IMG/VR virus record: IMGVR_UViG_3300028591_000074
Span: 128,001 to 192,000 of that record
Strand: one strand, 5' to 3'
DNA length: 64,000 bases
From: a virus
Lineage: Duplodnaviria; Caudoviricetes
Under the pieces are notes generated by a model that worked only from the letters and a program-made list of their open reading frames with translations, was not told the DNA's origin and ran no database searches. Within the stretch, counting starts at the first letter, position 1. Each line of letters opens with the position of its first letter. The translations under genes and the position numbers were made by a program. This document shows positions 2,941 to 49,971 of the stretch, one piece after another.

Positions 2941-4341
2941 CTATATAATCTTTCCTACTACTCCATTCAAAATTTCTACAACAATGAAAATATTGACGTT
3001 TATTGTCACACCACTTAGATTCAGGATTTACACAATTCGAAGTCCATCCGAAACCGTAACCATCCCAGTATTGACAATTTGCGCAACGTCTATTTGATTT
3101 CTTTGTTTTATTTATTGGTCTATGGTTCATGTAATTTTCTCACTTTCGAATCACAGTTAAGACAATCCCAAGGTGGGTATTTTTTCTCATTCCTAAATAG
3201 GTAACTTGTCTATGACACACAGTACATTCAAACAAATATATGCAATCATTATATTCAATTGGAATCGGTGTCACTTTCTTCCACAGATTCATTTAATGCC
3301 TCCAACATCTCTACTACCTGTTCAAAGTATCTGCCAGTCGGTTTTACAGAATCTGGCGAAACTCTCAATAAAGAACCGCCAGTAGCATTTAGTAGCCACA
3401 ATGTATCACCACTGCCATCATTAGATCGTTTTGTTATAATGTATGGTTCGCCATAGTAAATTACTTCAGAGCCAACTTTAATCGAATCCTTTAATTCCTC
3501 ATATGCAGTTATTTTTGATACGACTTCATCATACGTATTATGTGTTATTATCCCAATACCTTTCGAAGTATTTAAATCCAAACATCCGAAACAACTTTCA
3601 CGTTCATTCGGTAACATATGGAATACTTTTCTTACCAATTCCCAAGCATCATTGATACCACGATGATATTGAATTTTACAATCACCTGTATATTCTGCGA
3701 AATTTTTATTCCATTTAAGTGCATCAGATCTACCATTTTCATATCCTGAATTATACATTAATTCAGAAATTTCATTTACTTTATCTTTAAGTTCAAAATA
3801 TCTCATCATTTACACCAAACCTTTCACAGAAATTATTACAATATCAATCTCTAAGTATTTTAACGATTTTTGGATTCAAAAAGTGCAGAACATCCTAGTC
3901 TGCACTTATGTTATTCGAAAATTCAGTTAGTTCTTCTACTAAATCAATATACAAGTCTATCAGATCAACTATGAAGTTAAAATTCTTCTCTTTCATCGGA
4001 TAGCCCTGCATATCCATTACATTTCCTCTATAAAAGAATAGTTCGTGCGGTTGTTCAAATAGACTCATTATCAATCCCCTTTATCATCCACATCTTGCAC
4101 CTAAGATATGTGTTTTAAAATGTATCGCTTAAACCAATTACATTCACCATCTGAGAACTCTACACGATATGCCCATGTATCTCCTGGATCAATTTCAACA
4201 ATCTCACCAATCTCACCAAGTCTACGTTTGCAATAATCATCATATTGATAATCTACAACTATCATAACTTTATCACCTATATGTAGTTCTTCGTATTCGT
4301 ACCCCTCAACATAAATATCCATTTCTTAATCCCCTCAGTTA

Positions 4342-22028: not shown

Positions 22029-22460
22029 TCAAATCATGTTTTCCAAACGAATCTGTCTCATTTCATCCCAAATTAAGTTAGACAGTATTCTAACTCTTGC
22101 TTTACGAGATTCGTCTAAAACATCCTTGTACTTATATATAAGGTGTTTTTCCTTTTTTGACACTAAAATGGTTTCTCTTGTGGATTCACGTACATCTATA
22201 TCATCTATATATAACAATCTATCGTTTGCGTAAATGAGGTCAAGATTCTTTCTTGTTTCTGCATATTCCAATTTCTGCTGAAGATGTTTCGGTTCTACAC
22301 CAGTAATGACCCAAGATATGGCTTCGGATTCTGAAATACAATTATTGACACGTTTCATTCTTCTACGTGCCACACCGCATATATACAGAATGGCAGCATA
22401 ATTGCTGCCAAGTGCCTGTACATATATATTAAATTTTGAATCATATATCCAATGTTTCAT
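22029..22460 (-). CDS. Hypothetical protein, N-terminus weakly RNA polymerase omega (RpoZ)-like
   Basis: SNYAAILYICGVARRR...EAISWVITG resembles omega S-x-Y...AR...ALEEI..G; weak. Confidence 0.3.
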   Translation of the reverse strand: MKHWIYDSKFNIYVQALGSNYAAILYICGVARRRMKRVNNCISESEAISWVITGVEPKHLQQKLEYAETRKNLDLIYANDRLLYIDDIDVRESTRETILVSKKEKHLIYKYKDVLDESRKARVRILSNLIWDEMRQIRLENMI

Positions 22461-22530: not shown

Positions 22531-22886
22531 GTTTGACACCTATGTAAGTTAGCATTTCATCAAAACTTCTACCATGTATCAAGCATTTTGACACCTATGT
22601 AAATTAACATGACACCAAAACGATATCGTGATTTCACCGCGTATCTGGCTTGTTTGATACCTATGTAATTTAACATGACATCAAAACAGTAGCAGTTACA
22701 TTCATGATACTTCCTCCAGTTTGATACCTATGTAATTTAACACTGTATCGAAACTAATAGCACGCTTTTGTTTCGATTCGCTTTGTTTGACACCTGTGTA
22801 ATTTAACATTGTATCGAAACTAATATCGGATTTGGAAGTCAGTTGGCAAGGTTTGATACCTATGTAATTTAACATGACATCAAACC
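22531..22886 (-). CRISPR. CRISPR array 1: six 36-nt repeats, spacers 19/30/31/30/30 nt
   Basis: Repeats at 22531, 22586, 22652, 22719, 22785 and 22851; plus-strand consensus GTTTGAYACCTATGTAATTTAACATGACATCAAAAC. Confidence 0.93.
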
Positions 22887-22997
22887 CCAAATCACACACG
22901 TATTCAGTTTTGATAGCATATTTACAAAGGTTTAGTGAGTGCTTTGTGGAAATCATTATAGATTTCCTACCTCACTATAAGGTTGTCAAATCAACCC
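22887..22997 (-). ncRNA. tracrRNA-like scaffold, copy 1
   Basis: Two hairpins plus anti-repeat ACCTTTGTAAATATGCTATCAAAAC; homologous to 23586-23697 and 23881-23961. Confidence 0.8.
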
Positions 22998-23043
22998 TTA
23001 TATATAAATATTTCAATTACATGTAACAACCGATCCTTCTGAT

Positions 23044-23585
23044 GTTTGACACCTATTGAATCCCATAGCTCAACAAAACTGTATTAACTGTCATGTTTTC
23101 TTCGCTTAGATTTGACACCTGTGTAATTCCGCAGTTCCTCAAAACTATAATGTATTACCCTTGAGTTTGACTATGTTTGATACCTATATAATTTTGCAGT
23201 CTGTCAAAACCGGTATCTCACCTAAGCCGTTTTCCACAGGTTTGATGCCTATGTAATCTCACAATCTAACAAAACCAAGATGTTCTTGTCGATGCCATCA
23301 AGGAAGTTTGACACCAATGTAATTTCGTAGTCCAACAAAACAGAAACTGATATATGAGAATCCCATGTATTAGTTTGACACCTGTGTAATTCCATAATCC
23401 ATCAAAACTTAGCGAATGTCTGTTCACTTTTGACACCTATGTAATCTCACAATCCAACAAAACAATGAATTGTGTTCTTTCATCTTGATTGTTGTTTGAC
23501 ACCAATGTAATTTCATAGTCTATCAAAATCTTCAGACAAATACCTAATAAGTTTGACACCTATACAATTTACAGTCCGACAAAAC
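23044..23585 (-). CRISPR. CRISPR array 2: nine degenerate 35-36-nt repeats, spacers 30/29/29/30/31/19/30/21 nt
   Basis: Repeats at 23044, 23110, 23175, 23240, 23306, 23373, 23428, 23494 and 23551; approximate consensus GTTTGACACCTRTGTAATYYCRYARTCYAWCAAAAC. Confidence 0.92.
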
Positions 23586-23697
23586 ATCAAATCACACATA
23601 TTCAGTTTTGACAGATCATATTTTACAAAGGCTTAGTGAGTGTGTTACGTGAATCATTTCAGATCACTACCTCACCATAAGGTCGTCAAATCGACCC
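23586..23697 (-). ncRNA. tracrRNA-like scaffold, copy 2
   Basis: Same two hairpins with compensatory changes; anti-repeat GCCTTTGTAAAATATGATCTGTCAAAAC. Confidence 0.8.
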
Positions 23698-23736
23698 CGT
23701 ATATTAAATTTTACGTTACGATTATATTTAGCATAA

Positions 23737-23812
23737 GTTTGATGTATTTGTAATTCCATACACCACCCGGGCCTGTAGTTTGATGTCCTTATAATTCCAT
23801 ACAGTTCAAATC
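23737..23812 (-). CRISPR. Two degenerate repeats (array 3 remnant)
   Basis: gtttgatgtatttgtaattccatac at 23737 and gtttgatgtccttataattccatac at 23778. Confidence 0.55.
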
Positions 23813-23838
23813 AAAAGTATAATCATCCAACCTTTTAT

Positions 23839-23961
23839 GTTTGACATCTATGCAATCACATATAGGATCGTTGATCCGTATGAAATTACAAAGGCTTGGT
23901 GAGTGTGTTACGGATAATTCTGAGACTATCCTACCTCACTTTACGGCTGTCAAATCAACCC
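23839..23961 (-). ncRNA. Fused scaffold+repeat (omegaRNA/sgRNA-like) overlapping the cas12f stop codon
   Basis: Scaffold copy 3 whose anti-repeat joins a repeat through GGATC-AAC-GATCC, ending ...AGATGTCAAAC. Confidence 0.75.
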
Positions 23962-25295
23962 ATTATTGTAATATTCTTTGCCTTGTTATAGGCATGACTG
24001 ATTGTTTTTCCACAATGAGGGCAAGTAAACGATACTTCCTGTGTCCATTCAAATACCTTCGGAATTACTTCTTCTGTACAGAATACTTCACCGCAAGAAC
24101 TGCATACATTCCGGACTGTCCGAAGAACATCTGTCTTTTTATCCTGCTTATCAGTCATCTTACTTGTTGTTACAACAATACCTTCACGTTCTGCCTTATA
24201 AGTAATGAACTGTACCAACTGGTAATAGGACCAATTCCGAAGAAGTACGGGGTAATCATCAAGATCTGACTTCGTTACATCTTCTACCACAATAGCGGAT
24301 ACCTTGTTATCTTTTGCAAACTCAACAACCATCTTACTAAGATTATGATTGTATGTCTGCACATAATTTTTCTCATAGGACTTATGTGTTTCAAGTTTTG
24401 CTAACTTCTTCCCACGACCATGCCCACCATTGGAATACTTCAAAGCTCTCTGAAGATTCTCAAAGTGGATCTGAATATCTTTTCGTTTTGCTACAAGATC
24501 ATTCTTTATTGATCCGCCAATCTCATGTTCATCATCATCTGTAGAAAGTGCGGCAACAAGACATTTATCATATCCAAGTGCAAGCCCCATAATCTTTCCA
24601 TGCTCTGGGATATATTCTTCTGCATCACGCTCAATCTTGACAGACAGATTAAATATAATCTTACCCTTGTTCGTAATCTGAATCGTGCTACCGCAGACTT
24701 TATAATGTTCCGGATCAGTTACAATAGATTCCAAAAGTGACGGAAGGAACTTGTCCGGACCCTTATTCTTACCTGCACCAAGATACAGTTTGAAATGGAT
24801 TCCGTTTACAAACTTAAAGAAGTAGGCATTTACGGTATTTTCCGTTCCATCATCCGTAGTGTAGGTATCATCCCCGGTATAAATAGTAATGAACCTGCTT
24901 GGAACCATAAGTGGGAAATCTCTTTTATAAAATGGTAGATTCCGTTCACCCTTTGCAAGACCATTCTTCAAAGCTGTGGAAAAGTCCTGTTTTACTTTCA
25001 TACCACAGTTCCCGGCCATACCCAAACCCTTCGCCTGTTTCATATCATGTATGGCAGTATTTGTATTACGGAATATCATCTTCATTTCTTCCTTGAAGTT
25101 AGGATCATTGAAGTTCTTATCATACTTATAGTATAAGCACCCAACCTGTGACATGTAAGTATTCAAGATACAATACTGATTATAAATCCCGTCACGAAGG
25201 TACTGATATACTCTATCTCGTTCTTCTTTATCACCTACCGGGAATAACTGAATCTTCTTTGTTGTGATTGTAGTTGTTTTCTTCTGCATACCCAC
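23955..25295 (-). CDS. cas12f: Cas12f/TnpB-family effector, predicted nuclease-dead (dCas12f)
   Basis: 446 aa; LRNWSYYQLVQFITYKAEREGI helix and CSSCG/CPHCG Zn finger typical of clostridial Cas12f. RuvC-I MGLALG (D>A), RuvC-II VVEDV intact, RuvC-III SHAYNKAKNI (D>A). Likely ATG start at 25289. Confidence 0.88.
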   Translation of the reverse strand: MGMQKKTTTITTKKIQLFPVGDKEERDRVYQYLRDGIYNQYCILNTYMSQVGCLYYKYDKNFNDPNFKEEMKMIFRNTNTAIHDMKQAKGLGMAGNCGMKVKQDFSTALKNGLAKGERNLPFYKRDFPLMVPSRFITIYTGDDTYTTDDGTENTVNAYFFKFVNGIHFKLYLGAGKNKGPDKFLPSLLESIVTDPEHYKVCGSTIQITNKGKIIFNLSVKIERDAEEYIPEHGKIMGLALGYDKCLVAALSTDDDEHEIGGSIKNDLVAKRKDIQIHFENLQRALKYSNGGHGRGKKLAKLETHKSYEKNYVQTYNHNLSKMVVEFAKDNKVSAIVVEDVTKSDLDDYPVLLRNWSYYQLVQFITYKAEREGIVVTTSKMTDKQDKKTDVLRTVRNVCSSCGEVFCTEEVIPKVFEWTQEVSFTCPHCGKTISHAYNKAKNITIMG

Positions 25296-49765: not shown

Positions 49766-49971
49766 AAACTTTGAACCCCCTTCTGCATAGTTTTCCCTAT
49801 AAGATTATAAAAGGTTTGGTTAAGCAAAATAGAAAGTAGATACAATGTCAGAAATATTTCTTCACTGTATCCACTTTCTATGTGTTGTTATTTAATTATT
49901 TTTTCTCACTATAGTGTTTGTGTTATGGTAGTTTTGTGTTACTTTTATCTTATGTTTACGATTATTGTTGG

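Follow-up and report, generated by a model that had tools for sequence, protein, structure and literature searches.

TnpB is guided by an omegaRNA whose scaffold overlaps the 3′ part of the open reading frame (~100 nt) and ends at the right end of the transposon, the guide being flanking DNA. Among Cas12f proteins, the dCas12f effectors of Bacteroidota rely on single chimeric guides, which are encoded directly behind the gene and in some cases in tandem, and one locus was found to mix gRNAs with CRISPR-like arrays (Hoffmann et al. 2025, PMC12259090). The route proposed in that study leads from an omegaRNA to a dual guide and from there to a re-collapsed single guide. [quoted passage not shown] Two further systems are tracr-L of S. 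pyogenes Cas9, a natural single guide (Workman 2021, as cited in PMC12259090), and TranC, described in the statements that cite them as TnpB-to-Cas12 intermediates that arose via guide splitting (Jin et al. 2025, as cited in PMC13565253; 10.64898/2026.03.27.714800).

The DNA analyzed here (the window) is a stretch of 64,000 nucleotides belonging to a virus record of 253,527 bp, rated 100% complete by CheckV and carrying head, tail, and lysis genes. It encodes a Cas12f-like effector followed by several guide modules, the first of which, T1, adjoins the effector gene. In our view, T1 is a guide module that has collapsed, within a Cas12f1-type system that is phage borne and nuclease dead (probability roughly 0.6).

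A nuclease-inactivated Cas12f1 lineage in a large phage

The effector gene is present in a single copy in the genome:

23955-25295, minus strand: dcas12f (P0001), 446-aa Cas12f1-family effector (Pfam PF07282)

Pfam detects the Cas12f1-like TNB domain (PF07282) alone in P0001; the OrfB_IS605 domain was not detected. The best solved relatives are RhCas12f (9NZP, 2.7e-49), the CnCas12f-like 8HR5 (1e-40), and AsCas12f (1e-19), and the homology spans the WED, REC, RuvC, and zinc-finger (TNB) domains of the characterized Cas12f1 members. In an alignment of 20 homologs, the RuvC-I motif GVDLG is changed to GLALG and the RuvC-III motif NADFN to SHAYN, each involving an Asp-to-Ala substitution, while the RuvC-II Glu and the zinc-finger cysteines are retained.

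Homologs of the effector number roughly 570. The loci compared encode proteins 98, 97, 81, 77, 62, 60, 58, 52, 51, and 47% identical to P0001, plus many at 35 to 39% identity. Both RuvC aspartates are absent in all 11 sequences of the window clade (47 to 98% identical; window, L001 to L005, L078, and L158 to L162) and present in all nine sister-group sequences (35 to 39% identity), a long branch (1.33) lying between the nuclease-dead clade and the nuclease-active sister group. The gene is under strong purifying selection (dN 0.012, dS 0.572, dN/dS ~0.02 for the window versus L001). With both RuvC aspartates missing, RNA-guided DNA binding is the likely role of the protein, as judged from its sequence.

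No match to cas1 or cas2 (PF01867 or PF09827) was found across the 253-kb genome, and the eight ORFs flanking dcas12f are devoid of a sigma-factor domain, the upstream neighbor encoding a D12 methyltransferase. A mechanically called ORF of 142 aa (23841-24269, plus strand), antisense to the effector and T1, is most likely no gene.

Guide modules downstream of dcas12f

Three scaffold copies (T1, T2, and T3), all close paralogs, lie downstream of dcas12f and are the only ones in the 253,527-bp genome (87.0 bits for T1, 86.0 for T3, and 85.4 for T2). The second and third lead CRISPR arrays:

23608-23699, minus strand: T2 scaffold (CM, 85.4 bits)
23551-23699, minus strand: T2 module head (scaffold, 27-nt anti-repeat, 19-nt linker, first full repeat)
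23044-23585, minus strand: array A2, nine heterogeneous repeats of 35 to 36 nt, spacers of 19 to 22 or 29 to 31 nt
22907-22999, minus strand: T3 scaffold (CM, 86.0 bits)
22851-22999, minus strand: T3 module head (scaffold, anti-repeat, linker, first repeat)
22531-22886, minus strand: array A3, six repeats
23586-23604 (T2) and 22887-22907 (T3), minus strand: linker before the first repeat, TGTGATTTGAG-like

In both modules, the anti-repeat is followed by a linker of 19 to 21 nt, a full first repeat of 35 to 36 nt, and then the array, as laid out in the preliminary description of this DNA. Several of the window spacers are common to L001, L002, and L003, with point differences, indicating that the arrays are inherited and drifting rather than actively renewed. 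Across 22531-23585 (minus strand; A2 and A3), repeats belonging to the same array diverge at many middle positions, and the spacer lengths are bimodal (19 to 22 and 29 to 31 nt). A mechanically called 84-aa ORF inside A3 (22702-22956, minus strand) is most likely no gene. A terminator-like hairpin at 22391-22410 (minus strand; 8 bp, 5 GC, T-rich tail), ~120 nt past the last A3 repeat, plausibly marks the end of the guide transcription unit.

Anti-repeat, linker, and repeat 1 fold in cis as one long interrupted hairpin, with the linker as apical loop, in T2 (−14.3 kcal/mol), T3 (−19.8 kcal/mol), and L005 (−22.0 kcal/mol), and nothing terminator-like was found between scaffold and array of the modules. 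Together, these two features mean that every module starts with a single-guide topology, and that a scaffold in trans is required by repeats 2 to n alone. Conservation of the linker motif TGTGATTTGAG reaches down to 38% protein identity (L005, L019, L078, L159, L160, and L162), although the linker is predicted to be a mere apical loop; it may correspond to a processing site or a protein contact.

The structure of the family was derived by RNAalifold from 20 units, which gave stem 1, the long GUGAGG/CACUCAC stem, and stem 2. Applied to 49 CM matches from phage and Bacillota loci, 96.2% of the cells are paired, and 15 of the 18 scaffold pairs show compensatory change among the 49 members, a figure that none of 500 shuffles reached; slid controls pair at 33 to 46%. 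Covariation extends to the stem-1 loop and the 3′ end of the repeat (TTTGA/TCAAA, TTTGG/CCAAA, TTCAG/CTGAA, TTTTA/TAAAA, and CCTTT/AAAGG), of which T1 keeps a matching pair. Complementarity to the repeat (TTACAYAGG...) is also seen in the stretch directly following the scaffold (GCCTTTGTAA...), and the two sequences covary, as read by eye, in L159, L160, L162, and L078. The basic module of the family begins with a ~66-nt structured scaffold, continues with an anti-repeat and a conserved linker, and passes into repeat 1 of a short array. In the predicted structure, the stem-1 loop of the scaffold pairs with the 3′ end of the repeat beside the guide, forming a pseudoknot, and the anti-repeat pairs with the remaining repeat. 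T1 carries all of these family elements, i.e., scaffold, pseudoknot pair, and anti-repeat/repeat complementarity; no Rfam family matches the T1 region.

T1 is a trimmed and closed version of the module

The T1 unit and its immediate surroundings comprise the following:

23896-23961, minus strand: T1 scaffold (CM match 23871-23963, 87.0 bits)
23960-23956 paired with 23949-23945, minus strand: scaffold stem 1, loop AUUUGA
within 23896-23961, minus strand: long scaffold stem GUGAGG/CACUCAC, enclosing stem 2
23895-23873, minus strand: anti-repeat arm, 23 nt, 5′ arm of the closing hairpin
23872-23870, minus strand: apical loop AAC (from the fold)
23869-23839, minus strand: repeat-like arm, 31 nt (from alignment to T2/T3 and the fold)
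23838-23817, minus strand: guide, 22 nt (from reading of the sequence)
23816-23778 and ~23772-23737, minus strand: two degenerate repeats, with almost no spacer between them

The letters of the unit (23961-23817, minus strand) agree with the order of scaffold, anti-repeat, AAC, repeat arm, and guide originally quoted for it. T1 does begin inside the last codons of cas12f, at G23961, GGGTTGA being the last Gly codon and the TGA stop, and anti-repeat and repeat are indeed joined via a 3-nt AAC loop (23872-23870). The final 8 to 9 nt of the repeat-like arm (..UGUCAAAC) are complementary to the stem-1 loop and constitute the pseudoknot strand. The proximal anti-repeat (GCCTTTGTAA) matches that of T2 in every position, and T1 retains TGTGATT, part of the linker motif of the array-leading modules.

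RNAfold, the check suggested in the preliminary description, was run on 23839-23895 (minus strand). The hairpin forms, with 16 interrupted base pairs (7+4+5) at −14.2 kcal/mol; it accounts for 51% of the ensemble (z −3.09), only 1 of 200 shuffles is as stable, and folding of the whole unit recovers the identical hairpin. Among three orthologous units, the closing hairpin is stable in just one (z −2.57 in L002, compared to z ~+0.9 in L001 and in L003-U1). T1 is without the distal part of the duplex and the linker, and the short hairpin GGAUC-AAC-GAUCC closes the proximal duplex that remains. Its predicted product is a single ~145-nt RNA comprising scaffold, closed repeat:anti-repeat stem, pseudoknot strand, and 22-nt guide. 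The modeled folds thus support a single-guide topology (scaffold, closed repeat:anti-repeat hairpin, guide) for T1, although the two degenerate repeats downstream mean that it is not strictly a lone guide.

Since T2 and T3 are contiguous with their first repeat and adopt the same cis fold, T1 is a trimmed version of these modules, not another kind. The suggestion that the locus keeps fused and split guides side by side holds for the arrangement, T1 adjoining array-leading modules, but the contrast is only one of degree, given the cis hairpins of T2, T3, and L005. Tail length was tried and rejected as a criterion for fused and split units: the array-leading tails of L160 and L162 (50 to 59 nt) are as short as that of T1 (57 nt). 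It is the truncated first repeat that distinguishes T1.

A GC-rich element (ACNGGCCCNGGNGGTGTAT) lies between the degenerate repeats in the window (23755-23775, minus strand), L001 (5655-5675), and L002 (5628-5648). It is conserved across the three phages, unlike the guide that precedes it.

Probable origin of closed units from array-leading modules

Loci with multiple scaffold plus mini-array modules are the rule among the relatives (two modules in L005, in the stretch shown, four in L078, two each in L159, L160, and L162, and three in L019). In L078, a Lachnospiraceae MAG contig whose effector is 47% identical and whose scaffold modules number four, tRNA-like sequences (GGTTCGATTCC motifs) are interspersed among the guide modules at 3850-4120.

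The full-repeat state is found across the protein tree in L162 (basal), L159, L160, L005, L078, and the active sister group (L019 and L079), and closed units are restricted to L004 and the subclade that includes the window. In L004, a single compact unit of the closed type lies 850 nt downstream of the gene, with no array in the stretch examined. In L001 and L002, an extra, decayed closed unit, T0, occupies the gene end and T1 comes second, the order being T0, T1, T2 plus array, an inserted IS605-type tnpB, and T3 plus array. The absence of T0 from the window is due to the loss of 156 nt between two scaffold starts. The tnpB insertion sits between array A2 and the T3 module; it is a canonical IS605-type gene (OrfB_IS605 plus TNB, 429 aa; 6717-8006 in L001, with an equivalent in L002) and is absent in the window.

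L003 has four units, of which the gene-proximal U1 is closed. The last, U4, is closed and degenerate, and its upstream flank is common to T3 of the window and T3 of L001, making it the positional ortholog of an array-leading module. U4 being closed where its ortholog leads an array, the change went from array-leading to closed. The presence of the full-repeat state in the deeper branches and in the sister group points, by parsimony, in the same direction, and the comparison (12 loci, incompletely resolved tree) favors a closed state that would be derived and would have arisen at least twice. These data, together with the L003-U4 conversion, do not support the earlier interpretation of T1 as an ancestral omegaRNA-like form that persists next to split forms descended from it.

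Nor is there support for the proposed resemblance to an omegaRNA that overlaps the end of its gene. The overlap amounts to 7 nt and is lineage specific, the scaffolds of L003, L005, L078, L159, and L160 starting 12 to 50 nt past the stop codon, which makes the overlap of T1 with the gene end a local accident. The position of T0 at the gene end in L001 and L002, with T1 second, also counts against it.

Conservation and drift of T1

The dS of 0.57 between the window and L001 predicts a neutral difference of ~40%. Over the same comparison, the T1 scaffold differs at 10 of 65 positions and the 3′-terminal 23 nt of the tail at 2; drift of the apical hairpin (23865-23880) is unrestrained, as would be expected of a dispensable loop. 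Where the window has TGTAATT, L002 has TGCAATC, the partner GATTGCA being unchanged, so that two G-U pairs have become G-C pairs. Retention of the closed gene-proximal unit spans the window, L001, L002, and L003, with effectors 81 to 98% identical. The T1 guide, on the other hand, is wholly different among phages with 97 to 98% identical effectors. T0 is decaying in L001 and L002 (64.7 to 77.8 bits, with a mutated GTGAGG motif), and this unit, together with the degenerate repeats after T1, indicates that the gene-proximal zone does accumulate dying units.

Guide matches and a promoter-like motif

Matches of the 18 guides to the 253-kb genome are in no case better than those of shuffled guides, over the full length or the first 16 nt. 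In cultured phages, guide matches occurred at chance level only, and the 20-mer of the T1 guide is absent from IMG/VR. Three matches in metagenomes had unrelated flanks and no extension and were not beyond chance, and two weak matches among 401 Lachnospiraceae genomes were both to scaffold/anti-repeat sequence, not to spacers.

The T1 guide opens with a 10-nt word (ATAAAAGGTT) that recurs seven times in the genome, always on the plus strand after TAnAAT (TAnAAT-ATAAAAGGTT at genome positions 25571, 36213, 77003, 103944, 107089, 177807, i.e., window position 49807, and 206436). On the minus strand (AACCTTTTAT ATTAT..), the motif lies ~25 to 35 nt upstream of an RBS and ATG, three sites having been read to the start codon, and this position makes it a candidate phage promoter. 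Composition-matched permutations reach the count of seven recurrences in 1.7% of cases, uncorrected for 18 guides, and the matches to the T1 guide end after 10 to 11 nt. L002 also has the motif (three copies), and its T1 guide matches neither the motif nor any repeated word. With matches of 10 to 11 nt and an L002 guide without a match, aiming of the T1 guide at the promoter-like motif is suggestive and unproven.

Origin and function of T1

If T1 is a collapsed module, it would be secondarily derived from an array-leading one by internal deletion and drift. Transcription might start at a −10-like TACAAT within the final codons of dcas12f, or T1 might form the 3′ end portion of the effector mRNA; a promoter scan was not enriched over shuffles (17 found versus 14.5 expected). 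The RNA would need neither pairing in trans nor an RNase III cut and, once loaded onto the dead effector, would direct DNA binding (transcription block) rather than cleavage.

The same unit could be a tracr-array module in the process of dying, half of its first repeat deleted and the remainder drifting without guide function, with T2/A2 and T3/A3 doing the work. The degenerate repeats that follow T1 fit such a scenario, as do the nonconserved guide with no target found, the instability of the hairpin in L001 and L003-U1, and the visible decay of the neighboring T0 in L001 and L002 and its deletion in the window. So does the divergence of the T1 tail, which reaches 29% between L001 and L002, close to the neutral rate, as against 1 to 3% for the tails of T2 and T3. 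The T1 scaffold, however, scores on par with those of T2 and T3 and has diverged far less than synonymous sites have. Conservation extends to the pseudoknot strand and the hairpin base, compensatory substitutions are present in L002, and the unit persists across 81 to 98% protein identity, all of which makes a dying T1 rather unlikely. Far less likely still is that T1 represents an ancestral omegaRNA-like guide at the gene end, with T2 and T3 as split descendants and the locus as a record of the omegaRNA-to-tracr/crRNA transition. T1 lies next to the gene, in contact with its stop codon, the tracr anti-repeat region is similar in sequence to the 5′ half of the repeat, as expected if repeats came from the last stem of a single RNA, and TranC are reported, in the citing statements, as intermediates through guide splitting (PMC13565253; 10.64898/2026.03.27.714800). 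Against this stand the full-repeat state of all deeper branches and the active sister group, an ORF overlap of 7 nt that is absent in the relatives, and the array-leading linker motif that T1 keeps within a set of three closely paralogous scaffolds. L003-U4, moreover, displays the orthologous change from array-leading to closed directly, and there are no transposon ends or tnpA, the sole true TnpB nearby being the IS inserted in L001 and L002. The least probable of the explanations is that T1 acts mainly as an extra tracrRNA in trans on the A1, A2, and A3 repeats, its closed hairpin being incidental: the GCCTTTGTAA segment is the same as in T2 and could pair with the TTACAYAGG segment of any repeat, but the cis partner holds the anti-repeat in 51% of the ensemble (MFE fold), and tracr scaffolds are already supplied by T2 and T3.

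Returning to the collapse of an array-leading module as the origin of T1, we advance a wider proposal more tentatively, at somewhat less than even odds. An independently inactivated Cas12f1 lineage in large phages of gut or rumen Bacillota would be collapsing dual into single guides, closed units having formed repeatedly (T1, T0, L003-U4, and L004) from tracr-array modules, and T1 would be a working, effector-linked repression guide. Were this proposal true, the locus would be a natural convergent replay of the route proposed for Bacteroidota dCas12f and of laboratory sgRNA design. If T1 is loaded and active, dual-guide modules would coexist with collapsed single-guide derivatives beside one effector in several lineages, and the direction and mechanics of type V guide fusion and splitting would become testable on natural rather than engineered sequences. 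The locus would also offer a compact natural DNA-binding effector (446 aa, ~120-nt scaffold) with a ready single guide. There is a caution in this as well, in that a gene-proximal fused guide need not be ancestral; the evidence here favors refusion. The idea of single-guide collapse has already been published for dCas12f (PMC12259090); the clade described here is a separate, point-mutated dead Cas12f1 lineage, found in a large phage.

Comparison with known systems

T1 resembles the TnpB omegaRNA/reRNA in being, by structural prediction, a single RNA with a scaffold and a pseudoknot beside a 3′ guide, associated with a small, TnpB-sized protein, and the pairing of the stem-1 loop with the repeat end is of the pseudoknot type known from Cas12 tracrRNAs and omegaRNAs. 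It differs in the absence of transposon ends or tnpA, in a gene overlap of 7 nt versus ~100 nt, and in a guide that is followed by repeat remnants, not flanking DNA. Effector size, arrays, and the absence of cas1/2 would be compatible with TranC, as far as they are characterized in the statements citing them, and the idea of an interconversion of single and split guides is common to both; P0001 is closer to Cas12f1 structures than to TnpB, and the polarity here would be from dual to single. In TldR (TnpB-like nuclease-dead repressors) and tracr-L, the latter as cited in PMC12259090, natural single guides direct binding without cleavage for gene regulation, which by analogy might also apply to T1, and TldR genes are phage borne in some clades. 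Both belong to other protein lineages, and their targets are known, whereas none was found for T1.

The closest solved proteins are those of type V-F1 Cas12f (RhCas12f, the CnCas12f-like 8HR5, and AsCas12f), with whose guides the family shares a tracr scaffold, a pseudoknot to the 3′ end of the repeat, and a repeat:anti-repeat duplex. Arrays A2 (nine repeats) and A3 (six repeats), each with an adjacent scaffold and anti-repeat, are likewise as in a type V-F locus. Unlike type V-F1, P0001 is nuclease dead, the genome has no cas1/cas2, the repeats are heterogeneous, and the tracr is present in several copies, every one of them joined head-on to a mini-array of its own. T1 itself is like an engineered Cas12f sgRNA, with both strands trimmed and closed by a short loop.

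dCas12f-sigmaE likewise combines a dead Cas12f with a scaffold-guide RNA encoded immediately downstream. P0001 nevertheless represents a different lineage (2.4e-16 against structure 9N9C, compared to 2.7e-49 against RhCas12f), was inactivated by point substitutions and not by C-terminal truncation, has no sigma factor (in dCas12f-sigmaE, the adjacent rpoE, an ECF sigma with a C-terminal extension) among its eight neighboring ORFs, and resides in a Bacillota-associated 253-kb phage, where full tracr plus array modules persist beside T1. The sequence and predicted structure of T1 are consistent with a single scaffold plus guide RNA being bound by a dead effector, as in dCas12f-sigmaE.
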